Positions 20,540 to 63,030 of a stretch of 64,000 nt of DNA are shown here, piece after piece (the first letter of the stretch is position 1; each line of letters begins with the position of its first letter). The notes below the pieces were generated by a model. The model had not been told where the DNA came from and did not search any database. It was given only the letters and a program-made list of their open reading frames with translations. Made by a program: the position numbers and the translations under genes. This DNA is from a bacterium (GTDB lineage: Bacteria > Planctomycetota > Planctomycetia > Pirellulales > UBA1268), in assembly GCA_029978085.1 (NCBI GenBank), contig JAPOJV010000001.1, positions 2,110 through 66,109 on the forward strand. The letters run 5' to 3'.

Positions 20540-20665
20540 GTCCGGCTCCGCTGTTCCTTACCCGATTGTAAGGCAAGCGATGTGCCGCTGCAATGAACCC
20601 GGCACCCGACCGGTCGCAGTCTGGGCAAGCGGGCAGGCCCCAGGGCTGCGTGATATCATGAAGCC

Positions 20666-21292
20666 ATGACCAACAGTATCCCCCCGAACGGCGTGAGCTC
20701 CCAAGATCGGGGGCCGGCGGCGAGCCGCTCACGAGCCTCCGGGAAGTTCGTGCTTCGCCTCGACCCGCACCTGCACGGCCTCCTGCGAGAGGATGCCCAT
20801 GCGGCGGGCGTATCGCTCAACGACTGGTGCGGACGCACGCTGACCGCCCCGGGGGCGGGAGGGCTCGATGCCGCCTCGACCGCTGTGCTGCCACTCCGCA
20901 CGCGGCTCGGCAGCGATCTGGAGGGAGTGATCATCTACGGATCGTTCGCGCGGGGCGAACTCGCTGCCGGGTCCGACGTCGATCTGCTCGTGGTGCTCGC
21001 GGCCGGCGTACCGATCACTCGCTCCCTCTACCGGGAGTGGGAGGGAGTGGTGCCCTCGTGGAATGGCCGCGAGGTCGATCTGCATTTCGTGCATCTGCCG
21101 GCTCCCGCCGACAGAGTCTCCGGGAGCTGGGCGGAGGCTGCCGTGTGCGGCATCGTGCTCTATGACCGCGACCTCGCCGTGTCGCGGCGACTCATCGCGA
21201 TCAGGGAGCGGATCGCCGCGGGCGAACTGACGCGGAAGATGGCGCAAGGCCAGCCCTACTGGATTCACGAGGATCGCGATGCGCAGCCCTGA
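20666..21292 (+). CDS. Fusion of a HicB/RHH-like DNA-binding segment with a minimal nucleotidyltransferase (MNT) domain
   Basis: N-terminal FVLRLDPHLHGLLREDAHAAGVSLNDWC (Arc/HicB-like), followed by IYGSFARGELAAGSDVDLLVV (GS-x9-DxD). Confidence 0.75.
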   Translation: MTNSIPPNGVSSQDRGPAASRSRASGKFVLRLDPHLHGLLREDAHAAGVSLNDWCGRTLTAPGAGGLDAASTAVLPLRTRLGSDLEGVIIYGSFARGELAAGSDVDLLVVLAAGVPITRSLYREWEGVVPSWNGREVDLHFVHLPAPADRVSGSWAEAAVCGIVLYDRDLAVSRRLIAIRERIAAGELTRKMAQGQPYWIHEDRDAQP

Positions 21293-21695
21293 ACTGGGAG
21301 CCGACTACATTCGCCGCGCGAAGGCCCGGCTGGCCGCGGTGGACGCGCTCTTTGCCGCACAGAGCTGGGCCGATGTCGTGCGCGAGTCGCAGGAAGTGGT
21401 CGAGCTGGCGCTCAAGGGTTTGTTGCGAATCGCTGGCATCGAGCCGCCGCGGATTCACGACGTATCGGAGGTGCTCGTGGCCGAGAAGTCGCGGCTCCCG
21501 CAGGCTGTGCAGCAGCATGTGGAAGCGCTCGCCGCCGGATCCCGCACGCTCCGCCGCGATCGCGAGCTGGCCTTTTACGGCGCCGAGGACCTGACGCCGT
21601 CCGGTTTCTACACACGGGACGACGCCGCCGCCGCCCGTGAGATCGCCCGCACGACGGTGGCAGCGGCGGAGCCTCATGTGCCGACCGTGCCCTGA
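21279..21695 (+). CDS. HEPN domain protein (cognate partner of the upstream MNT)
   Basis: 138 aa. GIEPPRIHDVSEVL and RRDRELAFYG are typical HEPN features. 14-nt overlap with the MNT gene. Confidence 0.75.
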   Translation: MRSPELGADYIRRAKARLAAVDALFAAQSWADVVRESQEVVELALKGLLRIAGIEPPRIHDVSEVLVAEKSRLPQAVQQHVEALAAGSRTLRRDRELAFYGAEDLTPSGFYTRDDAAAAREIARTTVAAAEPHVPTVP

Positions 21696-35309: not shown

Positions 35310-37976
35310 CTACGCGAGTCGGCGGGCGACCACCTTGGCGGCCATCTCGTCGAGCGTCGTTTCCCGCAGCCGGCGACCGTACTTCTCCGTGAGCCAGGGC
35401 AACGCCTCCTCGGCGACGTCGGCCTGCACAAGCACGAGGTCACCTGGCCGGGCGGCCTCGAGCACGAGTTGCACCGACGAGGCCCAGGTGCCACCGGCCT
35501 CGGCAGCCGTGGCCCGCGGGGCGGTCGCGGCGCTGACGCCCTGCCCGATGAGCCGCGTGATGTCGCCCGGCTGACGGCCACGGATGTAAGAATCCTCATA
35601 GACGACCACACGGTCGAACTCCGCGCCGAGCAGGCGGCCCTGTTCGAGCATGTCGTCATCGCGGCGATCGCCCGCTGCGGAGTAGACCGCGATCCGGCGG
35701 CCATGCGGCAGCCCACGGATCACGCGGCAGACCTGCTCGAGCGAGGGCACGTTGTGGCCGTAGTCGACCACGATCGATACACCCTCGAGGTCGAGCAGGT
35801 TGAACCGTCCCGGTGAACCGTCGGCATTGTTCGCAAACGTTTCCAGGCCGATCCGCACGAGTTCAAGCGGCACACCGAGCCGCCACGCGGCGGCGGCGCT
35901 GGCCAACGCGTTCTCCACCTGAAAGGGCACCAGGCCCTTATGCACCAGCGGCACCTTGTCGAGTTGCGCGAGTCGCGTTTCACGAGGGCCGTCGCAGAGC
36001 ACAATCCAGCCCTCGCGAATGGTGGCCGCGAGGCCGCCTGCGGCGAGATGCTCGACGACGAGCGGGTTGGCCGGATCGATGGCAAAGTAAACCACCTCAC
36101 CCTTGCACCATTTCTTCATGTCGACGACGAGCGGGTCGGCGGCGTTGAGGACGGCGGCGCCGCCGGGCCGCACGGCCGCGACGATCGCCCCCTTCACCCA
36201 GGCCAGCTTCTCCGGCGTGTCGATCTCGCCGATGCCGAGATGATCCCCCTTGCCGATGTTGGTGACTACCGCCACGTCGCAGCGGTCGAAGCCACAGCCC
36301 TCGCGGAGGATGCCGCCTCGTGCGGTCTCGAGCACCGCCGTCGTCACCGTCGGGTTGGCAAGCACGCGGCGGGCGCTCTGCGGACCGCTACAGTCGCCGG
36401 CGTCGATCTGGCGGCCGCCGATCCATACGCCCTCGGTGCAGGTCGTGCCCACGGTCGCGCCCCCGGTGGCCGAGATGTGCGACAGCAGTCGCACCACGGT
36501 CGTCTTGCCGTTCGTGCCCGTGACCGCGGCGGTGGGAATCCGCCCGGTCTCCCCCTCGGGAAACATCGCGTCGATGATCGCACGGCCCACCTCGCGAGGC
36601 GTGCCCACGGTGGGCTGGAGGTGCATCCGCAGGCCGGGGGCCGCGTTGACCTCGATTACCGCCCCCCGCTGCGACTCGAGCGTCTGCGCGATGTCGGTGG
36701 TCACGATGTCGATGCCGGCCACGTCGAGGCCGACGATCCGCGCCGCCTCGACGGCCCGCGCGGCCACCTCCGGATGCACGGCATCGGTCACGTCTTCCGC
36801 CGTGCCGCCGGTGCTCAGGTTCGCGTTCTGCCGCAGGAACACCACTCGTTCGGCGGCCGGCACGCTCTCCGGCGTGAGACCCTGCTCGGCGAGCACGGCC
36901 AGAGCCACCTCATCGATCGGAATCGGCGAGAGCACGTCGGCATGGTCACCACACCGCCGCGGATCCTCGTTCACGGCGTCCACGAGTTGACGCACCGTGC
37001 TTGCGCCGTTGCCCACGACCGCCGGGCGATACCGCCGCGCCGCGGCCACCATCTTGCCGCCCACGACGAGCAGCCGGTGGTCGTCACCGGCCACGAACCG
37101 CTCGACCACGACCGATGAATCCTCGTCGCGGGCGATCTGCCAGGCCTTCTCGACCTCGGCCTGGCCAGAGAGATTGACCGACACGCCGCGACCCTGATTG
37201 CCATACCGCGGCTTCACGACGACGGGCGTGCCGATCTCCGCCGCCACCCGCCAGGCATCGGCCGCATCGTTCACCGGCCGCCCCTCGGGCACCGGAATGC
37301 CCGACTCGGCGAGCAGCGCCCGCGTCAGCTCCTTGTCCTGCGCGATCGATTCGCCGATCGCCCCGGTCGCGTCGGTCTCGCTCGCCATGATCCGCCGCTG
37401 CTTCGCGCCGTGGCCAAGCCGCACGAGCGAGCCCTCGTTGAGCCGCCGCACGGGGATGCCGCGGGCCACCGCCGCCTCGACGATCGACCGCGTGCTGGGG
37501 CCGAGTTGCACGTCGAGCAGGATCTGCCGCAGCCGCTTCACTTCGGCGGTCACGTCGAACGGGGTATCGTCGATCGCGGCCATCAGCAGCCGATGCGCCG
37601 TGTGGAAGCACTCGATCGCGAATGACTCTTCCTTATATTCGATCACGACCTTGTAGACGCCGCGGGTGTTGGCCTCACGGGCCCGGCCGTAGCCCACCGG
37701 CGTGCCGGCGAGGGTCTGCAGTTCGAGCGTGACATGCTCGAGCACGTGGCCCATCCACGTGCCGGTGCGGAGCCGCTCGAAGAAGCCCCCCCGCTCTCCG
37801 ATCGAGCAGCGGTGCTCGATCATCGTGGGCAGCCACGCCATGATGCGGTCGTTGAATCCGGGCAGGGTGTGCGACGGAAAATCCTCGAGGTGGCCGAGAT
37901 CGACCCAGGCCTCGAGGCAGGGGAAGGAAGCCCACTGGTTCGGACCGCGCAAAGCCTTGAGCGACAGAATCTCCAT
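35310..37976 (-). CDS. cphA: Cyanophycin synthetase
   Basis: ORF 35310..38090 trimmed to ATG 37976 (MEILSLKALRGPNQWASFPCLEAWVDLG...). N-terminal CphA domain, ATP-grasp, and a Mur-ligase-like half with VTGTNGKTT. 888 aa. Confidence 0.92.
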   Translation of the reverse strand: MEILSLKALRGPNQWASFPCLEAWVDLGHLEDFPSHTLPGFNDRIMAWLPTMIEHRCSIGERGGFFERLRTGTWMGHVLEHVTLELQTLAGTPVGYGRAREANTRGVYKVVIEYKEESFAIECFHTAHRLLMAAIDDTPFDVTAEVKRLRQILLDVQLGPSTRSIVEAAVARGIPVRRLNEGSLVRLGHGAKQRRIMASETDATGAIGESIAQDKELTRALLAESGIPVPEGRPVNDAADAWRVAAEIGTPVVVKPRYGNQGRGVSVNLSGQAEVEKAWQIARDEDSSVVVERFVAGDDHRLLVVGGKMVAAARRYRPAVVGNGASTVRQLVDAVNEDPRRCGDHADVLSPIPIDEVALAVLAEQGLTPESVPAAERVVFLRQNANLSTGGTAEDVTDAVHPEVAARAVEAARIVGLDVAGIDIVTTDIAQTLESQRGAVIEVNAAPGLRMHLQPTVGTPREVGRAIIDAMFPEGETGRIPTAAVTGTNGKTTVVRLLSHISATGGATVGTTCTEGVWIGGRQIDAGDCSGPQSARRVLANPTVTTAVLETARGGILREGCGFDRCDVAVVTNIGKGDHLGIGEIDTPEKLAWVKGAIVAAVRPGGAAVLNAADPLVVDMKKWCKGEVVYFAIDPANPLVVEHLAAGGLAATIREGWIVLCDGPRETRLAQLDKVPLVHKGLVPFQVENALASAAAAWRLGVPLELVRIGLETFANNADGSPGRFNLLDLEGVSIVVDYGHNVPSLEQVCRVIRGLPHGRRIAVYSAAGDRRDDDMLEQGRLLGAEFDRVVVYEDSYIRGRQPGDITRLIGQGVSAATAPRATAAEAGGTWASSVQLVLEAARPGDLVLVQADVAEEALPWLTEKYGRRLRETTLDEMAAKVVARRLA

Positions 37977-38855
37977 GGAAAGATTTGAGTGCCTATTCGA
38001 TCCCATGCAGACGCGTGCAGGGGTCGGGAAGTGTGCGCCTCCACCAGCCACCGGACATTCCGGTAGATGTGCCTGGAAAGGAGGTCGCACGGATGACAGC
38101 TTGGCTGCGGCGGCGCGTCGCCGGCGCAGTCCTGTCTGCCAGCGCAGACAGCCGTGCTGACCCGACGGGGGGGAGCGTCAGGGCGGCGGCTGACAGTCTG
38201 GAGCCGCGGGGGGGAGTCCTGTGGCGACGCAATGGTTCGCCAGCAGGTTCGAGCACAACGTGGGGGAGAGATTCCCGTCGAGCAATCGACCGGCCAAAGT
38301 GGCCATGGGGAGAAAGGATTCCTACACCGCAGGACCGGATTGCATCGCCGCACGCCACACGGACGCGCGTTCGCTTGCGATGCCCGTTTCTCGCGGCACC
38401 ATGAATCGAACCACGCCACTGGGTCCACTGATCACGCGTGTGCGTGCTCGGCTTCGCAGCGGCTGACGAAAAGTTTACGCTTCCGTGCAGCGAAAGCGAA
38501 ACATTTTTCGCCGCATTTGAGCAGGTGCATTCTGCGTGCCAGTGCGTTGCCGATTCCGCTCCGTGATCGGAAAGGCGTGCAGGAGCGGGTGCAGCGCGGG
38601 ACAGCCGGGCCAAAATCATTGAAGAATTGACAACGAGCCGAACCGGACGGTCACGGTGGGGCGGAAGGCGGGAATTTTTTTCAAGTCAGTCAGCGCGGCG
38701 CAGAAGTCGAGCCGGCGGAGCGAGGACCGTTCAAACCAAGTTAATCTAGGTATCTTCGGAAAGCCACGCACCTTTCTGTGCCCCGCGGCCTCACCCCCCT
38801 TCCAATCGGGCTTTGCGGTCGATTGGCCCCATTTTTGCGAGAAAAAACGGAATTC

Positions 38856-41168
38856 ATGGCAGCCACAGCCCTGTCCGCAGACTCAGCCCCCGGGGACGCG
38901 CCCCGCAGGACCGCCGGTCTGCCGTGGGGCGACCTGGTTCGGCTCCAGCCGGGCGAACAGGTTGTGGCCGTCTGCCGGTTCGACCTCGATGGCCAGATGC
39001 GATTCACCGACGGCTGGATCGCCCTCACCGATCGTCGGCTCGTTGCCGATGCCCCCGCCTCCGCCGATGCGGCCACCCTCGAGACCCCCGGTCCACGATC
39101 GTGGCCCCTTGGCGATGGCACGCGGATCGATGTCTATCTCCGGTCCGCAGTGGGCCGGATCGAGCTCTCCGAACGGGGCCGAGTGATCGCCCGCTGGCTG
39201 TTCACGCCCGCCAAGGCGAAGGGCGTGCACGCGCTGGAGGACGCCTTCGATGCTCGGTCCGAGGCTCGTGGCGGCCCGACCGCCCCATCGGCAGCACCGC
39301 CGGCTGCTACCGACGAGGCCGGCGAATCCACCGCGATCGCGCCGGCCCGCGGCCGTGGCGACGATGACGGCCCCCTGCCGAGCAGCGGCCTCGCATCATG
39401 GCGGGCACTCGCGCGGCTGCTCGGCTTCGCCAAGCCGCACTGGCGCATGGCCGTGCTCGGTATCGCGCTTTCTCTGGCCAGCACGTCGGCCGCGCTCGTG
39501 CCTCCGTATCTCACGATGCCGCTGGTCGACAAGGTGCTGATCCCGAGGCAGGCGGGGGAGCAGGTGCCATTCTCGGCAGTGTGGTGGTATCTCGGCGGCC
39601 TCACGGCTGCGGCCCTCATCGCGTGGCTCCTCGCCTGGGCCCAGACGTGGACGCTCGCCTGGGTGAGCGAGCGGATCGCCGCCGGACTCCGCGTGCGGAC
39701 CTACGCCCATATCCAGCGGCTGTCACTCGATTTCTTCCAGGGCCGCCGCACCGGCGACCTCATCTCCCGCGTGGGCAGCGATACCGACCGCATCAATATC
39801 TTCCTGTCGGTGAACCTGATCGAGTTCGCCTCGAACGTGATGCTGATGGTGCTCACGGTGGGCGTGCTGATCTGGCTCAATCCCCGGCTGGCCCTGCTCA
39901 CGCTCGTGCCCTTCCCGTTCGTCGTCTGGCTCGTCTACGCCGTCCGCGAGCGGCTGCGCCGCGGTTTCGGCCGGGCGAGCGTGGCCTGGGGCGACATGAC
40001 GAGTGTGTTGGCCGACACGATCCCCGGGATCCGCGTGGTCAAGGCGTTCGCCCAGGAGTCACGCGAGATCGACCGTTTCGTCGCCGCCAACGACCGCGTG
40101 CTGGATGCCAACGACCGCGTCAACGTGGTCTGGTCGTTCTGCGGCCCGCTCGTGACGCTTTTCAACGAGCTTGGCCTCCTGTGTGTGTGGGCCGCGGGCG
40201 CCTGGCTCGTGTTCGGCGGCGGCGTGACGGTGGGTGGCCTCACGGCGTTCCTCGCCTACATCGCCCGGTTCTACGGCCGCGTCGAGTCGATGATCCGCAT
40301 GGTGCCCGCGACCCAGCGGGCTGCGGCCGGTGCGCAGCGGATCTTCGAGATCCTCGACTGCACGCCGTCCGTCGCGGAGGCCGCGCACCCCGTGAAGCCC
40401 GGCCGTGGCGACGGCCGGATCCAGGGACGGATCGAAATTTCCGGCGTGCACTTTCGCTACGGCGCACGGGAGGTGCTCCACGGCATCGACCTCGTGATCG
40501 AGCCGGGCGAGATGATCGGCCTCGTCGGCACGAGCGGTTCCGGCAAGTCGACGCTCGCCAACCTGGTCTGCCGCTTTTATGACCCGTCGAGCGGCTCGAT
40601 CAAGGTGGACGGCGTCGACCTCCGCGACCTGTCGATCGCCGACTACCGCCACAACCTCGGCTGCGTGCTCCAGGAGCCCTTCCTCTTCTTCGGCACGATC
40701 GCGGAGAACATCGCCTACGGCCGGCCCGACGCGCCGCGAGACAAGATCGTGGAGGCCGCCCGGGCCGCCGGCGCCCACGACTTCATCCTCGCGCAGCCGC
40801 TGGCCTATGACTCCCGCGTCGGCGAGCGCGGCGGATCGCTCTCCGGGGGTGAGCGTCAGCGGCTCTCGATCGCCCGCGCCCTGCTCGTCGACCCGCGGAT
40901 CCTGATTCTCGACGAGGCCACGTCGAGCGTCGACGCCGAGACCGAGGCGATCATCCAGGCCGCGATCGACCGACTGGTGACGGGCCGCACCACGATCGCG
41001 ATCGCCCATCGACTGTCGACGCTCCGCCGGGCCAATCGGCTCGTGGTGCTCGATGCCGGCCGCATCATCGAGATGGGTACGCACGACGAACTGCTCGCCC
41101 TCGACGGAGCCTATGCCCGGCTTTATCGGGCGCAGATGGAAGAGAGCGAGGCGGCGGCCGGCGTCTGA
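38856..41168 (+). CDS. ABC exporter (fused permease/ATPase) with a soluble N-terminal extension of about 190 aa
   Basis: ORF 38778..41168 trimmed to ATG 38856. Six-TM exporter domain, Walker A GTSGSGKST, signature LSGGERQRLSIARAL, Walker B ILILDEATS. Confidence 0.88.
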   Translation: MAATALSADSAPGDAPRRTAGLPWGDLVRLQPGEQVVAVCRFDLDGQMRFTDGWIALTDRRLVADAPASADAATLETPGPRSWPLGDGTRIDVYLRSAVGRIELSERGRVIARWLFTPAKAKGVHALEDAFDARSEARGGPTAPSAAPPAATDEAGESTAIAPARGRGDDDGPLPSSGLASWRALARLLGFAKPHWRMAVLGIALSLASTSAALVPPYLTMPLVDKVLIPRQAGEQVPFSAVWWYLGGLTAAALIAWLLAWAQTWTLAWVSERIAAGLRVRTYAHIQRLSLDFFQGRRTGDLISRVGSDTDRINIFLSVNLIEFASNVMLMVLTVGVLIWLNPRLALLTLVPFPFVVWLVYAVRERLRRGFGRASVAWGDMTSVLADTIPGIRVVKAFAQESREIDRFVAANDRVLDANDRVNVVWSFCGPLVTLFNELGLLCVWAAGAWLVFGGGVTVGGLTAFLAYIARFYGRVESMIRMVPATQRAAAGAQRIFEILDCTPSVAEAAHPVKPGRGDGRIQGRIEISGVHFRYGAREVLHGIDLVIEPGEMIGLVGTSGSGKSTLANLVCRFYDPSSGSIKVDGVDLRDLSIADYRHNLGCVLQEPFLFFGTIAENIAYGRPDAPRDKIVEAARAAGAHDFILAQPLAYDSRVGERGGSLSGGERQRLSIARALLVDPRILILDEATSSVDAETEAIIQAAIDRLVTGRTTIAIAHRLSTLRRANRLVVLDAGRIIEMGTHDELLALDGAYARLYRAQMEESEAAAGV

Positions 41169-41200
41169 CGTCACACCACCGTTCCCCTGCCCGACACACC

Positions 41201-41722
41201 ATGCACCACGCGACTTCCGACATGACGTCCAATGACATGACGCCCCAGACCGGCTCCTCCCCCGCAGGCTGGCGGCTGGAGCGGCATGCCCACGGCCGGC
41301 TCGACTTCGTCGATGCCCAGGGCCGGCGGCATGCCAACGTGGACGTGCTCCGCGCCTTTCCCGTAAGCGACCCCGCCGGTCCGGCTGCGATCGTTGCCGC
41401 CGAAGGCGGTGAGTTGGCGTGGGTCGAATCACTCTCCGGCATCGCCGCCCCGCTTCGCACCATCCTCGAAACGGAGCTTGCCCAGCGGGAGTTTCTCCCG
41501 CGGATCGAACAGATCGAGGCGGTGTCCGATGGAGAGCCTGCCGAGTGGACCGTGGTCACCGACCGCGGCCCGCATCGGTTCAAGGTGGCCCACGCCGACG
41601 ACTTCGTCGCGCAGCCCGACGGCAGCGCATTCGTGACCGACAGCTACGGTATGCGATACGCGATCCCGAGCATCGCCGCCCTCGACCCCCGCAGCCGCCG
41701 CCTGCTCGAGCGCAAGGGGTAG
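41201..41722 (+). CDS. DUF1854-like protein (family reported as cyanophycin-metabolism-associated)
   Basis: The pattern GRLDFVDAQGRRH...VLRAFPVSDP...ELAWVESL...ELAQREFLPRIEQIEAV...WTVVTDRGPHRF...YGMRYAIPSIAALDPRSRRLLER matches my recollection of DUF1854. The gene immediately follows the ABC exporter. Confidence 0.65.
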   Translation: MHHATSDMTSNDMTPQTGSSPAGWRLERHAHGRLDFVDAQGRRHANVDVLRAFPVSDPAGPAAIVAAEGGELAWVESLSGIAAPLRTILETELAQREFLPRIEQIEAVSDGEPAEWTVVTDRGPHRFKVAHADDFVAQPDGSAFVTDSYGMRYAIPSIAALDPRSRRLLERKG

Positions 41723-41763: not shown

Positions 41764-41923
41764 CCCACGGGCCCTTCCCCGACCCCGTAAGATGGACGGG
41801 TTACGCCGTTCATGAGGGACGGGGGCCTGTTTTTCGCGAAAAAACGTGGTTTTTTTCTCAACCTTTCGGTTGAAGCCTGCGTACATCGGATTAGTCTCGA
41901 AGGGTCTTTTCAGGAGCCAACTC

Positions 41924-43630
41924 ATGACCCCGTTCGGCCGCCGTTCGAACGCCTCTCGCCGCCTGCTGTCGCTGGCGTGCACCGCCCTCGTCGTCGCACC
42001 GCAGGCTCCCGCCATGCGGACCGCGCGGGCCCAGTGCTGTGGTGACGCCGTCGTCGCCCCCGCTCCGGTCGCCACGCAGACCTACCGCCTCGACTACCAG
42101 ACCGTCTACGACGAGCAGCAGGTCACCGCCTACCGCATCTCGCAGGAGACCGTCTACGACTCGAAAACCTACACCGTGCAGAAGCCGGTCTGGGAGACGC
42201 AGACGCAGGAGCGTCGTTACACCGTGCAGCGTCCCGTGTGGGAAACGCAGACCCGCGAGGAGCGGACCACGGTGATGAAGCCCGTGTACGAGACGCAGAT
42301 CCAGGATCGCAGCTACGACGTCACCCGTGACGTAATCGAGACGGCGACCCGCGAGGAGCAGTACACGGTGATGAAGCCTGTGTACGAGACCGTGATGCAG
42401 CAGCAGGTCTCAACCGTCCGCAAGCCGATCTACGAGACGAGTGAGCGGGAGCAGGCCTACACCGTCACCGAGCCGGTCACCCAGATGCGGACCGCCTACT
42501 CCGTCGGCAGCCAGGCCGTTGACACCGTCACGCCCGTCGTCACGCCGGGCACGACGTCGCTCGGCTGGGTGCCCGCCAGCTACGCCATCGACCCCTCCAC
42601 GGGTCTCGCCGTCATGCAGCGGGGCGGCTGGGTGTGGCAGATGAATCCCGGCGCGGTCGTCAACCAGGTGAACCGCGTCTACCAGCCCACCTACACGCCG
42701 GTGCAGGTGCCTGAGACGACCTACGTCAACCGCGTGGTGACGCAGAAGGTGCCGGTGCAGACGGTCCGCTACGTCGATGAGCAGGTCGTCCAGCAGGTGC
42801 CCGTGCAGACCATGAAGATGGTTGCCGAGACGGCGACCCGTCAGGTGCCCGTGCAGACCGTCCGCAAGGTGGTCGAGCGGGTCGAGAACAAGGTGCCGGT
42901 CACCGTCTGCCGGATGGTGCCCGAGGAACAGGTCCGCCAGGTGCAGATGCAGGTGATGAAGTACGTCACCGAGGAAAAGGTCGAGCCGGTGCAGGTGCAG
43001 GTGATGAAGTACGTCACCGAGGAGCGGACGATGCAGGTGCCGCGGGTCGTCGAGAAGCGGACGCCCTACACCTACACAGTGCGGATGCCGCGGACGGTGG
43101 TCACGAAGGTGCCGCTCGACCCGTGTGGCAATCCGATTCCGGCTGCGGCGATGACCGCCGCTCCGGCTGCAGCCTCGCGTCCGACGTCGGCCCCTGCTCC
43201 GGCGATCTCTACCACCGACTCTGGCCCCCTGAAGACGTTCAGCGACCGGCCGGCCGACGCGCCGAAGAAAGTCGAAGAGGGCTGGGGCGCGTCGAATCTC
43301 AACCATGTTGACCCTGCCACGAGCTCCGCGGGCACGGTGCGGGCCGAGAAGCCGGTCGTCGATTCGGCTCAGGCTCCGAGCAGCGAGCAGTCGCTGAAGA
43401 AGATCGAGACGATTCCGGCGCCGGCCGCGAAGGAGCCGGGAGCGGCCCCGCAGACGCCGAGTCAGTCGGCGCCGAAGGCAGCCCCGCAGCCGGCGGTCGA
43501 GCAGTCGCCGACGGTCGCCCCGCCGGGTCCGGCTGTGTATCCGCCGCCGCCGGCCTCCGATCCCCGCGACGTGCCGGCTGCCGAGACCTCGGGCCGCAGC
43601 CTCACCGGCCGCCACGGCCACACGACGTGA
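41924..43630 (+). CDS. Secreted YTV-repeat protein with a Pro/Ala-rich C-terminus
   Basis: ORF 41846..43630 trimmed to ATG 41924 (signal peptide MTPFGRRSNASRRLLSLACTALVVAPQAPA). Tandem repeats of about 18 aa, YTV(Q/M)KPV(W/Y)ETQ..E(R/E)...; a 27-bp perfect direct repeat at 42949 and 42997. Confidence 0.75.
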   Translation: MTPFGRRSNASRRLLSLACTALVVAPQAPAMRTARAQCCGDAVVAPAPVATQTYRLDYQTVYDEQQVTAYRISQETVYDSKTYTVQKPVWETQTQERRYTVQRPVWETQTREERTTVMKPVYETQIQDRSYDVTRDVIETATREEQYTVMKPVYETVMQQQVSTVRKPIYETSEREQAYTVTEPVTQMRTAYSVGSQAVDTVTPVVTPGTTSLGWVPASYAIDPSTGLAVMQRGGWVWQMNPGAVVNQVNRVYQPTYTPVQVPETTYVNRVVTQKVPVQTVRYVDEQVVQQVPVQTMKMVAETATRQVPVQTVRKVVERVENKVPVTVCRMVPEEQVRQVQMQVMKYVTEEKVEPVQVQVMKYVTEERTMQVPRVVEKRTPYTYTVRMPRTVVTKVPLDPCGNPIPAAAMTAAPAAASRPTSAPAPAISTTDSGPLKTFSDRPADAPKKVEEGWGASNLNHVDPATSSAGTVRAEKPVVDSAQAPSSEQSLKKIETIPAPAAKEPGAAPQTPSQSAPKAAPQPAVEQSPTVAPPGPAVYPPPPASDPRDVPAAETSGRSLTGRHGHTT

Positions 43631-49010: not shown

Positions 49011-49301
49011 CTCCCACCTCCGTGTGGAACCCAAGCTCGGATGAGCCGGACAGGTGGAAGGCGTCCGTGCCTTTCACCGGCTCTTTTCTTTCGGCTTCGC
49101 GAGCCCCGGGCAGACAGTGCCCGCGGGCCGGCCGGGCGACCTCGACGCGACAGGCACACCTTCACGTTTCCGCGGGCCGCCCGCAGCGGAACACTGCCGC
49201 GGGCCCGGGCGGCAGACTCCCGCTGACCCGCAAAGCCCTCCCCTCTTGCCAAGCCCGCGGCAGCCGATCACAGTCTGGTGACCCGATCCTTCGTATCCGC
49301 C

Positions 49302-51461
49302 ATGGCCAAAACCAAGCAACGCCCGAGCAAAGCCGCGAAGACCGCCCCTGGTCAGCCCACGGAGCCGGAGGCAAACGGTCAGCCCGCGGCTGCGGCCAAG
49401 CAGCCCGCCAAGCGACGAGCCACCGCCCAGACGCTGGCCGCCGGGCAGCGCGATATTTCGGTGAGCGAGTTCTTCGCCAAGAACCGCCACCTGCTCGGCT
49501 TCGACTCGCCCCGCAAAGCCCTGCTCACGAGCGTGAAGGAGGCCGTGGACAACTCCCTCGACGCCTGCGAAGAGGCGGGCATCCTGCCGGAGATCTGGGT
49601 GCGGATCGAGCAGGTGGGTGAGAGCGGCTCCCGCTACCGCATGAGCGTGCAGGACAACGGCCCCGGCATCGTGGCCAAGCAGATCCCGCTCATCTTCGGC
49701 AAGCTCCTCTACGGCTCGAAGTTTCATCGGCTGCGGATGAGCCGCGGTCAGCAGGGCATCGGCATCTCGGCGGCCGGCATGTACGGCGTGCTCACCACCG
49801 GCAAGCCGGTGAAGATCATCTCCAAGATCGACGCCAAGCATGCCGCCCACTATTCCGAACTGCGGATCGACACGAAGACCAACCAGCCGGAGATCCTCAA
49901 CGGCAAGGGCGAGGGCGTCGACATCCCGTCCGGCAAGGGCGGCGTCGAGCTGATGAAGAAGCACTCGATCGAGTGGGTCGCCGAAAACGACAAGGGCGAC
50001 GCCATCGACCACGGCACCCGCGTGACGATCGAGATGGAGGCGAAGTTTCAGCGGGGCCGCGGCAGCGTCGAGGAATACCTCGAGCAGACGGCGATCTCGA
50101 ATCCCCACGCCCGCATCCATTTTCAGGGGCCCGATGGCCCCGAGCGAATCCTCGAACGCTCGACCGAGGACCTGCCGCCGGAGCCGAAGGAGATCAAGCC
50201 GCATCCCTACGGCGTCGAGCTCGGCCGGCTGGTGACCATGCTCCAGGAGCATCCCAAGCTCACCCTCGCCCAGTTCCTCACGCAGTCGTTCTCGCGGGTC
50301 TCTCACGGCACGGCCAAGAAGATCTGCGACACGGCGAAGCTCTCGACACGGGTGACCACCGGCAAGCTCGGCCGCGGCGAGGCCGATGCGCTCTTCAAGG
50401 CGATCCAAGAGACCAAAATCCCGCCGCCGGCCACCGATTGCGTGGTGCCGATCGGCGAACAGCGGCTGCTCGCTGGCCTGCGGCAGGTGGTGCCGGGCGA
50501 GTTCTTCACGGCGGCAACTCGGCCGCCGGCCGTCTACCGCGGCAATCCGTTCGTGATCGAGGCGGCGCTCGCCTATGGCGGCGGCGTGGCCGCCCAGAAA
50601 ATCAGCCGCGAGGCCCTCGGTGAACTGGCCGGCGAGAGCGACGCCCGCAGCCTGCGGCAGTTCCTCACCACGACGTTCAGCGGCCTCGGCGCCGAGGCGG
50701 CCGACAAGATTCTCGCCGAGGCCCAGCTGGCACCGCGGCAGTCGCCATCCAAGCTCAAGAAGCCGCAGCTCGACGCCTTGCACGGTGCGATGCAGCATGT
50801 GAGTGCCGACGATGGCCAGAGCATGAACGTGCTTCGCTACGCCAACCGCGTGCCGCTCCAGTTCCAGCCGGCGGCCTGTGCCGTCACGCAGACGATGACC
50901 TCGACCAACTGGCGGGCCTACGGGCTCTCGCAGTCGCGGGGCGGCCTGCCGAGCGGCCCGGTCACCGCGATGGTGCACGTGGCGAGCGTCTGGGTGCCGT
51001 TCACGAGCGAGTCGAAGGAGGCGATCGCCTCTTACCCGGAGATCCAGAAGGAGATCCGGCTCGCGCTCCAGGCGGTGGGCCGCAAGCTCGGCATGTACAT
51101 GCGGCGGCGGCTGCGGGTGGCCCAGGAGGGACAGCGGCGGAGCATCTTCCTCCGCTACCTCGGCGAGGTGGCCTCGGCGGTCTCGCAGATCAACGGCTCC
51201 GACCGGGCAGGCCTCTACGATCAGCTCCTCGCCGTGGCCAAGAAGAAAACGGCCGAGGCCGACGTGAAGCTCGACGACCGCGGCCGCCCGATCCAGGAAG
51301 AGGAAGACCTCGAGCTCGGCGACAACTGCATCATCGTCCCGCAGACGGTGCCGGGCTCAGGGACGACTGCCGGACCGCCGGAGGGTGAGGCAGACGAGAA
51401 GCCCACCCGCACACGCAAGCCAGCGGCGACGAAGCCGGCCAAGTCCCGCCGTCGGAAATAG
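49302..51461 (+). CDS. top6B: DNA topoisomerase VI subunit B
   Basis: ORF 49278..51461, ATG 49302. Bergerat-fold motifs EAVDNSLDACEE, VQDNGPGIV and SRGQQGIGISAAGMYG. H2TH-like KEIKPHPYGVELGRL and a transducer region (ANRVPLQFQ...VHVASVWVPFTSESKEAI). Basic C-terminal tail. Confidence 0.85.
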   Translation: MAKTKQRPSKAAKTAPGQPTEPEANGQPAAAAKQPAKRRATAQTLAAGQRDISVSEFFAKNRHLLGFDSPRKALLTSVKEAVDNSLDACEEAGILPEIWVRIEQVGESGSRYRMSVQDNGPGIVAKQIPLIFGKLLYGSKFHRLRMSRGQQGIGISAAGMYGVLTTGKPVKIISKIDAKHAAHYSELRIDTKTNQPEILNGKGEGVDIPSGKGGVELMKKHSIEWVAENDKGDAIDHGTRVTIEMEAKFQRGRGSVEEYLEQTAISNPHARIHFQGPDGPERILERSTEDLPPEPKEIKPHPYGVELGRLVTMLQEHPKLTLAQFLTQSFSRVSHGTAKKICDTAKLSTRVTTGKLGRGEADALFKAIQETKIPPPATDCVVPIGEQRLLAGLRQVVPGEFFTAATRPPAVYRGNPFVIEAALAYGGGVAAQKISREALGELAGESDARSLRQFLTTTFSGLGAEAADKILAEAQLAPRQSPSKLKKPQLDALHGAMQHVSADDGQSMNVLRYANRVPLQFQPAACAVTQTMTSTNWRAYGLSQSRGGLPSGPVTAMVHVASVWVPFTSESKEAIASYPEIQKEIRLALQAVGRKLGMYMRRRLRVAQEGQRRSIFLRYLGEVASAVSQINGSDRAGLYDQLLAVAKKKTAEADVKLDDRGRPIQEEEDLELGDNCIIVPQTVPGSGTTAGPPEGEADEKPTRTRKPAATKPAKSRRRK

Positions 51462-62173: not shown

Positions 62174-62590
62174 TCAGAGCAGCCGGGCAAGACAGGCTGC
62201 GAAGCGGTCGAAGTCCACGAGGTGGCTCTGCAGGTAATCGGCGACGAGAGCGTCGTCGATGTGCCAATACACGTGGACCAGCCGATTGCGGAATCGGGCC
62301 ATAGCCCGCAACGAGTCCTCCATGTCAGGCGGACAAATCCCTCGCTCGACGAGCACGGTGAAGGCATCGGCGCTGTCGCTCGGCGAGCGAAACCGCTCGG
62401 ACGCAATCACGTGGCAGGCCACATCGAGGCAACATTCGATCGCAACGACGAAGTGATACTTCGCGCTTGCCACTTTGTCGGGATCCGCCAGCAACTGAGC
62501 GGCGGGGATCGCAGCCAATCTCCGGAGTTCGCCGACATAGCCCGCCAGCAGCCCGAGCAGTGTGTCACACTTCGCCCGGTCCACCATCAT
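62174..62590 (-). CDS. hepT: HepT-type HEPN (DUF86) toxin
   Basis: RFRNRLVHVYW (R-x4-H HEPN motif), 138 aa. 4-nt overlap with the upstream mntA. Confidence 0.85.
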   Translation of the reverse strand: MMVDRAKCDTLLGLLAGYVGELRRLAAIPAAQLLADPDKVASAKYHFVVAIECCLDVACHVIASERFRSPSDSADAFTVLVERGICPPDMEDSLRAMARFRNRLVHVYWHIDDALVADYLQSHLVDFDRFAACLARLL

Positions 62591-63030
62591 CGGCTTGGCT
62601 CCCCGGCGGCGAGGCCAGCTGCTGCAAAGCTGGTGAGTCTTGCTTCATGAAAGCACTGGATGCGCGGCCGTTCATCGAACCACCGGACCATCAGCTCTCG
62701 CTCGAGCGTGACGCGGGCCGTTTCATCAGTGCAATGAAGTCGACACCCTCGTTCCAGCACCCGCGCCCGCCACTCGAGCGGCGCCTGGCCGAGATTCCGC
62801 AGGTCCACGTCCACGCCGAGCCGTCGCGAAAGGCGATCCGCCAGAATCATTTCCTCGGCCACCGGCAACGCCCCGGGGGTGGCGAGGTAATAACCGATGT
62901 CGAGATCACTGTCGGGAGTCGCGCCGCCCTCGATGCGACTTCCGTAGGCGTAGGACAGGAACACGGACGTGCCGCGAAACACGTGCTCGCATGCTTTGGA
63001 TGCTGTATCGATGATGGCGGCTTGATCCAT
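62587..63030 (-). CDS. mntA: MntA-type minimal nucleotidyltransferase antitoxin
   Basis: ORF 62587..63090 trimmed to ATG 63030 (MDQAAIIDTA...). YGSRIEGGATPDSDLDIGY (GS-x9-DxD). Confidence 0.82.
   Translation of the reverse strand: MDQAAIIDTASKACEHVFRGTSVFLSYAYGSRIEGGATPDSDLDIGYYLATPGALPVAEEMILADRLSRRLGVDVDLRNLGQAPLEWRARVLERGCRLHCTDETARVTLERELMVRWFDERPRIQCFHEARLTSFAAAGLAAGEPSR

Follow-up and report, generated by a model that had tools for sequence, protein, structure and literature searches.

The 64,000-nucleotide (nt) stretch analyzed here, positions 2,110 to 66,109 of contig JAPOJV010000001.1 (assembly GCA_029978085.1) from a bacterium of the Pirellulales and referred to below as the window, carries cphA, which encodes a cyanophycin synthetase, a gene for an ATP-binding cassette (ABC) exporter and a gene for a DUF1854 protein. 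The cphA and ABC genes are divergent, and the intergenic region of ~880 nt between them harbors a conserved non-coding element (Table 1). The original prediction, which had been made from the DNA letters and their translations, had placed the three genes at these positions with these strands and lengths, and their identities as cphA, ABC and DUF1854 genes were upheld by the NCBIfam and Pfam scores. The trio is an already catalogued module. The planctomycete variant in the window has a complete single synthetase and a structured element confined to its clade, and it lacks the zinc ribbon. New here are a PH-like domain in the exporter, the internal duplication of DUF1854, the complementary decay of the paralogues CphA and CphA', a candidate RNA and the exchange of the synthetase for other ligases.

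Table 1. Coordinates of the features at the cphA-exporter locus (positions are those of the window).
Feature	Position	Strand	Description
cphA	35310-37976	minus	888 aa; N, G (ATP-grasp) and M (Mur-ligase-like) domains; single full-length enzyme
cphA-proximal intergenic part	37977-38094	no strand	conserved solely in cphA-carrying loci
Conserved non-coding element, ~320 nt	38095-38414	no strand	30-nt core at 38350-38379
CphA-associated ABC exporter gene	38856-41168	plus	770 aa; half-transporter with six transmembrane helices and one nucleotide-binding domain
Exporter N-terminal PH-like domain (predicted)	38919-39269	plus	residues ~22-138; presumed cytoplasmic
DUF1854 accessory protein gene	41201-41722	plus	173 aa; starts 32 nt past the ABC stop
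YTV-repeat protein gene	41846-43630	plus	signal-peptide-like N-terminus; PF07639 131 bits

Conservation of the gene cluster

One genome per GTDB species was scanned with the N-terminal domain and transmembrane region of the exporter as the query. At least 596 species genomes were found to encode a relative of the exporter, and the locus counts were taken from the best 80. The DUF1854 gene lay directly downstream of the ABC gene in all 76 loci that could be evaluated, the remaining four contigs stopping in or just past the ABC gene, and cphA lay within 10 kb of the ABC gene, usually in divergent orientation, in 69 of the 71 loci with enough flanking sequence. The loci span the Planctomycetota, the Burkholderiales and the Rhodocyclales, bins labelled Chromatiaceae or Desulfobacteraceae, and an acidobacterial bin. 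The linkage of cphA also withstands rearrangement, since cphA is still adjacent where it is found co-directionally upstream (L019 and L048) or downstream (L035 and L038). As evident from these counts, which answer a test of co-occurrence set beforehand, the association of cphA, ABC and DUF1854 is far above chance. Beyond the trio, the 10-kb flanks of the best 80 loci contained no gene that is conserved across phyla, and in particular no such peptidase, membrane-fusion protein or outer-membrane factor. No cyanophycinase or dipeptidase was linked within 10 kb in any examined locus.

We also observed loci with unexpected labels or contents. The ABC proteins of L005, L007, L008, L019 and L020 were 47-76% identical to that of the window, some with the planctomycete gene order. 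The bins they come from carry the names Candidatus Kuenenia, Chitinophagaceae, Desulfobacteraceae or Bacteroidales, and mistakes in binning or naming probably account for some of these assignments. The acidobacterial bin carries ABC and DUF1854 (L024:8962-11696) with no cphA within 9-10 kb. The neighbors at this locus encode acetate kinase, a cyclase, a TIM-barrel protein, a thioredoxin-like protein and a TonB-type outer-membrane barrel; they are unrelated genes of housekeeping type.

The module has been noted before. Price et al. reported that cphA, cphA', ABC and DUF1854 are cofit and have motility and stress phenotypes in two betaproteobacteria (bioRxiv 10.1101/072470), so losing the pump resembles losing the synthetase. 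The same authors proposed the export of an amino-acid polymer, and described that a few genomes fuse DUF1854 to the transporter and that many betaproteobacteria are without cphB. NCBIfam holds dedicated models for the exporter (NF052233) and its partner (NF052234). The original prediction had taken the public label of this pair to rest purely on gene neighborhood. The linkage is real, but that account was incomplete, and the earlier interpretation was partly supported because the published genetic evidence and the export hypothesis had been missed. Its statement that no biochemical function had been reported for either protein agreed with our search, as we found no biochemical study of the exporter or the DUF1854 protein in the literature searched, where Price et al. 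were alone in naming DUF1854.

Pfam scans of all plausible open reading frames in the 64-kb window revealed no Peptidase_S51, Asparaginase_2 (IaaA), IadA-type amidohydrolase or AstE_AspA (CphZ-like) domain, which bears out the prediction that neither a cphB/cphE cyanophycinase nor an isoaspartyl dipeptidase is present there. Sharon et al. found a recognizable cyanophycinase in just 2.8% of 903 cphA1-bearing betaproteobacterial genomes, which they termed 'unanticipated', and made no mention of the exporter; cphA1 and cyanophycinase cluster in 81% of the genomes having both (PMC10206079). The figure of 2.8% fits the question raised in the original prediction as to how the polymer is turned over.

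Domain structures of the three proteins

The window synthetase is, as judged from its sequence, a cyanophycin synthetase 1 (CphA1), and it is predicted to make multi-L-arginyl-poly-L-aspartate from Asp, Arg and ATP. It scored 1202.2 bits on NF010623 (cutoff 877) and 1073.5 bits on TIGR02068 (cutoff 850), and a phmmer comparison with the solved CphA1 structures gave E-values of ~1e-218 for 7WAC and ~1e-212 for 7LG5. The Pfam domains comprise PF18921 (residues 24-135), ATP-grasp (~212-316), Mur_ligase_M (485-697) and Mur_ligase_C (723-851). The Cx19HxxEH motif of the N domain, CSIGERGGFFERLRTGTWMGHVLEH, begins at C57, the P-loop GTNGKT of the M domain is located at residue 487, and all three active-site motifs of the planctomycete CphA are intact. 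Sharon et al. showed that the Cx19HxxEH zinc-peptidase site cuts cyanophycin to yield primers, and this primer-generating peptidase motif is found in 83% of CphA1s (PMC9262961). The intact N-domain motif predicts that the window CphA would also be able to cleave the polymer into short oligomers.

Most betaproteobacterial loci (in the range L021-L080) contain two tandem paralogues, cphA' and cphA, with complementary losses. The exporter-proximal copy has kept Cx19HxxEH, with a degenerate P-loop and the C-terminal Mur-ligase domain lost; the distal copy has kept the P-loop, with a nine-residue deletion that takes out the cysteine and with HxxEH missing. Examples of the tandem arrangement are L028:4816-9733 and L065:4649-9751, and the proximal copy has retained its full length in loci of Cupriavidus, Achromobacter and Ralstonia. 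The planctomycete system represents the undivided form, since its single CphA keeps the motifs that are split between the betaproteobacterial paralogues.

The exporter scored 1011.1 bits on NF052233 ('cyanophycin metabolism-associated ABC transporter'; cutoff 880), with residues 29-766 aligned to profile positions 26-749 of 766. Its scores on generic models were below the cutoffs for MsbA (TIGR02203; 444.9 bits, cutoff 602) and HlyB (TIGR01846; 411 bits, cutoff 725), and a TAP-like model gave 397 bits. Pfam placed ABC_membrane (PF00664) at residues 201-474 and ABC_tran (PF00005) at residues 541-690, and gave no match for the ~200 N-terminal residues. The transmembrane domain (TMD) and nucleotide-binding domain (NBD) are highly conserved and include the ABC signature LSGGERQR, the Walker B region LILDEATS and family-specific TMD motifs such as ADTIPGIRVVKAFAQE. 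The exporter should be a homodimeric pump of the MsbA/HlyB type. The standard topology of the exporter fold puts an N-terminal domain on the cytoplasmic side, and the N-terminal extension of this protein would accordingly lie in the cytoplasm.

The original prediction had pointed to an extra N-terminal domain of this exporter. We found that the domain is present but is not peculiar to this gene; it is family-wide, with the homologues of all 80 loci measuring ~750-790 aa. An alignment of the N-terminal extension revealed a conserved core, which is followed by a CPxC..CPxC zinc ribbon in 29 of 44 homologues. The ribbon is a majority feature of NF052233 relatives rather than a curated criterion. 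In the window protein and in planctomycete proteins close to it, a low-complexity linker rich in Ala, Pro and Asp stands in its place. An AlphaFold2 model of the N-terminal domain, built on 18 sequences (further searches for homologues of the domain gave short planctomycete fragments only), showed a predicted local distance difference test (pLDDT) score above 90 for most of residues 22-138, with one 10-residue block averaging 68. The model consists of seven strands and a long C-terminal capping helix, followed by a disordered segment (141-176) and a helix that runs into the first transmembrane helix (TM1). Nearly all top Foldseek matches of this model in the PDB were PH or PH-like domains (best E = 6.6e-4), and five homologues of the domain weakly touch the Pfam bacterial PH model; no solved-structure relative was found by sequence. 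From the model, the N-terminal extension is predicted to have a PH-like fold.

The original prediction had identified the 173-aa protein as DUF1854, and this was confirmed by a PF08909 score of 116.2 bits (cutoff 26.8), with residues 44-171 covering profile positions 1-129 of 130. On NF052234, its only NCBIfam match, the protein aligned over nearly the full length and scored 138.7 bits (cutoff 150), and we read it, on this comparison, as a divergent member of that family rather than a non-member. The AlphaFold2 model (mean pLDDT 86) revealed two successive units, each of six to seven β-strands and a helix. DUF1854 appears to be an internal tandem duplication, because its two halves align with each other by profile comparison (hhalign probability 86.6%, E = 4.5e-6). 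In the PDB, neither a sequence match nor a significant Foldseek match to DUF1854 was found; the best Foldseek matches, to polo-box domains and designed β-propellers, were rejected as insignificant (TM-score of at most 0.23), the likeness to the polo-box being topological only. Homology between the exporter N-terminal domain and DUF1854 was likewise rejected, with a profile-profile probability of 0.8%.

DUF1854 forms ~1000 representative clusters at 50% identity, and an exact-sequence look-up of the window protein returned no record. Two natural fusions of ABC and DUF1854, P0175 (866 aa) and P0244 (913 aa), have DUF1854 on the C-terminal side of the NBD. Because the fusions place DUF1854 past the NBD, the protein is expected to be cytoplasmic and in 1:1 stoichiometry with the ABC protein. 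A 2984-aa match to DUF1854 (P0232) is a repetitive surface protein and was dismissed as spurious.

Intergenic element, ligase exchange and surroundings

The first ~440 nt of the intergenic region were 70-75% identical to related loci (blastn, ~410 nt), where the proteins are 70-80% identical. A tblastx comparison gave similar scores across the reading frames, which argues that the element is non-coding, and a small conserved open reading frame or leader peptide was rejected on the same ground. The element occurs in the genome loci L003-L006, L009 and L011. Its cphA-proximal flank (columns 28-118 of alignment A8) is conserved in L003, L004, L005, L006 and L011 and is absent in L009, which is without cphA. 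The 30-nt core is invariant, and exact copies were found in 98 metagenome stretches (L081-L178), with the same surroundings throughout: an ABC gene is located 462-754 nt downstream of the core on the same strand in 76 of 76 metagenome loci with an ABC match, DUF1854 follows the ABC gene in all 37 evaluable loci with the core, and the divergent cphA starts 369-436 nt on the other side of the core in 60 of 65 evaluable loci.

Upon alignment of 72 non-redundant copies of the element (mean pairwise identity 62%; alignment not fitted to any structure), ten helices with 61 pairs showed 89% standard pairing. Compensatory double changes were present at 37 of the 61 pairs, compared with 22.8 ± 1.9 in shuffled alignments, and none of 500 shuffles reached 37. 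The covariation score was 0.203, against 0.04-0.08 when the partners were slid by one to three columns, a contrast that is inflated by the shared source alignment. Several homologues also carry whole extra hairpins inserted at the helix tips. Folding stability relative to shuffled sequences was weak (z of ~-2 over the entire element, -0.8 over its middle segment), so the case for structure rests on the covariation. A covariance model of the 3' domain (R1) scored 143.5 bits at 38273-38400 on the plus strand, as a single copy in the window. A search with this model found no diverged copies in the more distant planctomycete and betaproteobacterial loci covered, which indicates that the element is clade-specific. 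Rfam 15 gave no match at E of at most 1 in 37800-39000 and none at gathering thresholds across the window.

From these patterns of sequence change, the element is probably a structured RNA that serves as a leader or as a small RNA, and it probably regulates one or both of the divergent operons in a freshwater Pirellulales clade. To our knowledge, this ~320-nt element is previously undescribed. Its transcribed strand leans toward plus, that is, the direction of the ABC gene: counts of G-U versus A-C (393 versus 208) favor the plus strand overall, and one covarying helix and the folding energy of the 3' domain favor the minus strand, the assignment by folding energy being confounded by composition and different between the domains. 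Sigma-70-type promoters and terminators in the intergenic region were not above shuffle expectation, and a sigma-54-like GGCAC..TTGC match proved on inspection by eye not to be conserved.

We also considered whether the element is a regulatory region acting at the level of DNA, such as shared divergent promoters or regulator binding sites, rather than a structured RNA. Its position between divergent operons, the invariance of a core of 30-45 nt, the stability only modestly above that of shuffled sequences and a strand that is not cleanly assignable would all be consistent with such a region. However, the excess of compensatory changes and the covariation score speak against it, and insertions at hairpin tips together with covariation are typical of RNA structure and not of protein-binding DNA; we regard a DNA-level element as rather unlikely, though as a serious alternative.

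In L009 and the metagenome loci L087, L103, L110, L127 and L157, the element, ABC and DUF1854 are kept and cphA is not at the locus; the downstream YTV gene is also kept wherever the flank sufficed. The ABC protein of L009 scored 988 bits on NF052233. In the four of these loci with inspected upstream genes (L009, L110, L127 and L157), a different gene set occupies the divergent position. In L009 (4021-9013, minus strand) this set encodes a 519-aa ATP-grasp protein, two ~420-aa paralogues that matched nothing in Pfam, NCBIfam or the PDB, and a 308-aa ATP-grasp protein of GshB/RimK-like type. This replacement of cphA by an ATP-grasp gene set in a sublineage suggests that the exporter pair handles the products of ATP-grasp ligases more generally. 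A possible alternative is that cphA lies elsewhere in those genomes.

The genes that flank the trio look to be without an apparent tie to cyanophycin. Upstream, the window contains the nuo operon and genes for an Mrp/NUBPL-type ATPase, LpxB, ThiE, ClpC and an MlaEFD set; downstream are genes for the YTV-repeat protein, ThuA, several Gfo/Idh/MocA oxidoreductases and a topoisomerase VI B-like protein. Of 43 planctomycete loci that could be evaluated, 31 have the YTV gene after DUF1854 on the same strand, loci without cphA among them; the gene is absent in more distant planctomycete loci such as L014, L017, L022, L026, L036 and L071. Whether the YTV protein belongs to the module is uncertain: its position could reflect synteny by descent, or the protein could be a fourth component restricted to this lineage. 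The topoisomerase VI subunit B-like protein (49227-51461, plus strand) has a Topo-VIb transducer and a GHKL ATPase domain and belongs to a family probably commoner in archaea and eukaryotes. Probable genes of toxin-antitoxin type were observed at 20654-21695, where a HicB/nucleotidyltransferase fusion lies beside a HEPN-domain protein, and at 62174-62644 (a HepT-like ribonuclease). The window has a GC content of 68% and contains no tRNAs.

The closest relatives of the DUF1854 and ABC proteins are from metagenome-assembled genomes or metagenome contigs labelled Pirellulales, Planctomycetia or Planctomycetota. Among the matches listed, the top genome match is a Pirellulales bin from Lake Mendota (84% identity), and the metagenome contig Ga0255188_1010715 is 100% identical across its ABC and CphA segments.

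Export model and alternative explanations

With moderate confidence, we propose that the ABC pump exports the product of CphA. This model builds on the gene identities, domain architecture, linkage and natural fusions observed here and on the published cofitness and scarcity of cyanophycinase in betaproteobacteria; the substrate, the direction of transport and the loading role are inferred. CphA1 would build (β-Asp-Arg)n in the cytoplasm, and, by homology, its N-domain peptidase would yield oligomers. The homodimeric exporter would carry its PH-like domain and the DUF1854 subunit, an architecture seen at the locus, on the cytoplasmic side of the membrane. These two parts may bind what CphA makes, or the enzyme itself, and pass the polymer or oligomer on to the transmembrane cavity, by analogy with the way in which ABC exporters for type I secretion and bacteriocins recruit their substrates through N-terminal domains. 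Powered by ATP hydrolysis, the pump would then release the product into the periplasm or at the outer surface of the cytoplasmic membrane. The polymer would thus be an envelope or extracytoplasmic material and not a cytoplasmic store, and a cyanophycinase would be missing beside the cluster because the polymer leaves the cytoplasm.

To place this model, we compared the window with known systems. The betaproteobacterial cphA-cphA'-ABC-DUF1854 cluster of Price et al. has the same ABC family with the PH-like extension, DUF1854 directly downstream and an adjacent, usually divergent synthetase. The window differs from it in having one complete CphA, no zinc ribbon, an intergenic region that holds the structured element, and a DUF1854 protein slightly under the NF052234 cutoff. 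The cphA-cphB storage clusters of cyanobacteria and others share the synthetase family, as the E-values against the CphA1 structures indicate, but the window has the exporter pair where the hydrolase would stand, with no hydrolase in the window or within 10 kb in related loci.

Exporters of type I secretion systems and bacteriocin exporters of the PCAT type resemble the window protein in being ABCB half-transporters whose TM1 is preceded by an additional cytoplasmic domain at the N-terminus. In contrast to them, the window exporter falls under the HlyB cutoff, its extension is PH-like and not of the C39 fold, no partner genes are conserved nearby, and its presumed substrate is a non-ribosomal polymer without a leader peptide; by analogy it may work like these exporters, yet it stands outside their families. 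NdvA/ChvA (cyclic glucan) and HepA (heterocyst envelope polysaccharide) are, according to NCBIfam, related exporters of a synthase-made polymer. The window protein scored 377 and 374 bits on their models, below the cutoffs of 733 and 725, and these exporters differ in having carbohydrate substrates and neither a PH-like domain nor a DUF1854 partner.

Several observations weigh against the export of cyanophycin. The docking role given to the PH-like domain and DUF1854 draws on analogy only. Long cyanophycin polymer is insoluble at neutral pH, so that its passage through a pump of this fold is a conjecture, and the substrate could equally well be a small molecule or an oligomer. The cofitness was obtained in betaproteobacteria with a split CphA/CphA' pair, not in planctomycetes, and Price et al. 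cite the Cupriavidus necator enzymes as not making classical cyanophycin (10.1101/072470). L009 and L024 carry ABC and DUF1854 without cphA within ~10 kb, and five or six loci carry other ligases in place of cphA, so cyanophycin is a presumed substrate. The absence of a cyanophycinase applies to the 64-kb window and not to the whole genome, and another Pirellulaceae genome is reported to encode one (PMC13190842).

In the main competing explanation, the pump serves as an overflow or detoxification valve for another substance (a small by-product, β-Asp-Arg dipeptide, a short primer, or free arginine or aspartate) and the polymer stays stored. Generically, the exporter is nearest to exporters of small molecules, lipids and peptides (MsbA and TAP-like models), the intact N-domain motif of CphA predicts oligomers, and some loci have no adjacent cphA, all of which would suit a valve. 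However, a valve predicts a pump phenotype that is distinct and dependent on the synthetase, and Price et al. report positive cofitness of the four genes. Two dedicated accessory domains conserved across phyla would also be unusual for a simple efflux valve, and the near-absence of cyanophycinase in betaproteobacteria would be left unexplained if the polymer were internal. We consider this explanation unlikely.

Cofitness would equally be expected of an obligatory assembly factor, and ABC and DUF1854 might act not mainly as a transporter but as a scaffold or regulator anchored in the membrane, which would bring CphA or the growing polymer there or sense the polymer load. Both extra domains would be cytoplasmic and PH-like folds are commonly binding modules, which agrees with such a role, but the conserved LSGGERQR, LILDEATS and TMD motifs argue for a working ATP-driven transporter. 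We know of no precedent for an ABCB-type exporter that serves purely as a scaffold, and we hold this role to be distinctly improbable. The import or salvage of cyanophycin-derived peptides as part of turnover is hardly credible: although cyanophycin-utilization loci elsewhere include transporters (PMC10206079), the window protein has the fused TMD-NBD of the exporter type (PF00664), no gene for a substrate-binding protein is nearby, and the examined loci have no linked cyanophycinase or dipeptidase.

Taking the export of the CphA product together with the other observations, a joint reading would be that in planctomycetes and betaproteobacteria cyanophycin, or a similar ATP-grasp product, is an envelope or extracellular polymer that is exported after loading through the PH-like domain and DUF1854 and not a nitrogen store in the cytoplasm, that in freshwater Pirellulales the system is controlled by the ~320-nt RNA as a possible riboswitch or leader, and that the unit of RNA and exporter is reused with a different set of ATP-grasp ligase genes. 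In its entirety, we regard this reading as possible but rather unlikely.

An exporter that travels with cphA in several phyla provides a testable explanation for the missing cyanophycinase, namely that the polymer leaves the cytoplasm. If true, the biological role of a widely distributed biopolymer would change, and a function would be defined for DUF1854 and for the ABC exporter family with the PH-like domain. The recovery of cyanophycin at present needs cell breakage, and a natural secretion route could aid its production. With its one complete synthetase and without the zinc ribbon, the planctomycete variant shows the system at its simplest. The ligand or regulator of the structured element would reveal what the cell senses, and the natural exchange of the synthetase for other ATP-grasp ligases bears on the substrate range of the pump. 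These results sharpen the question of what purpose cyanophycin serves outside the cyanobacteria.

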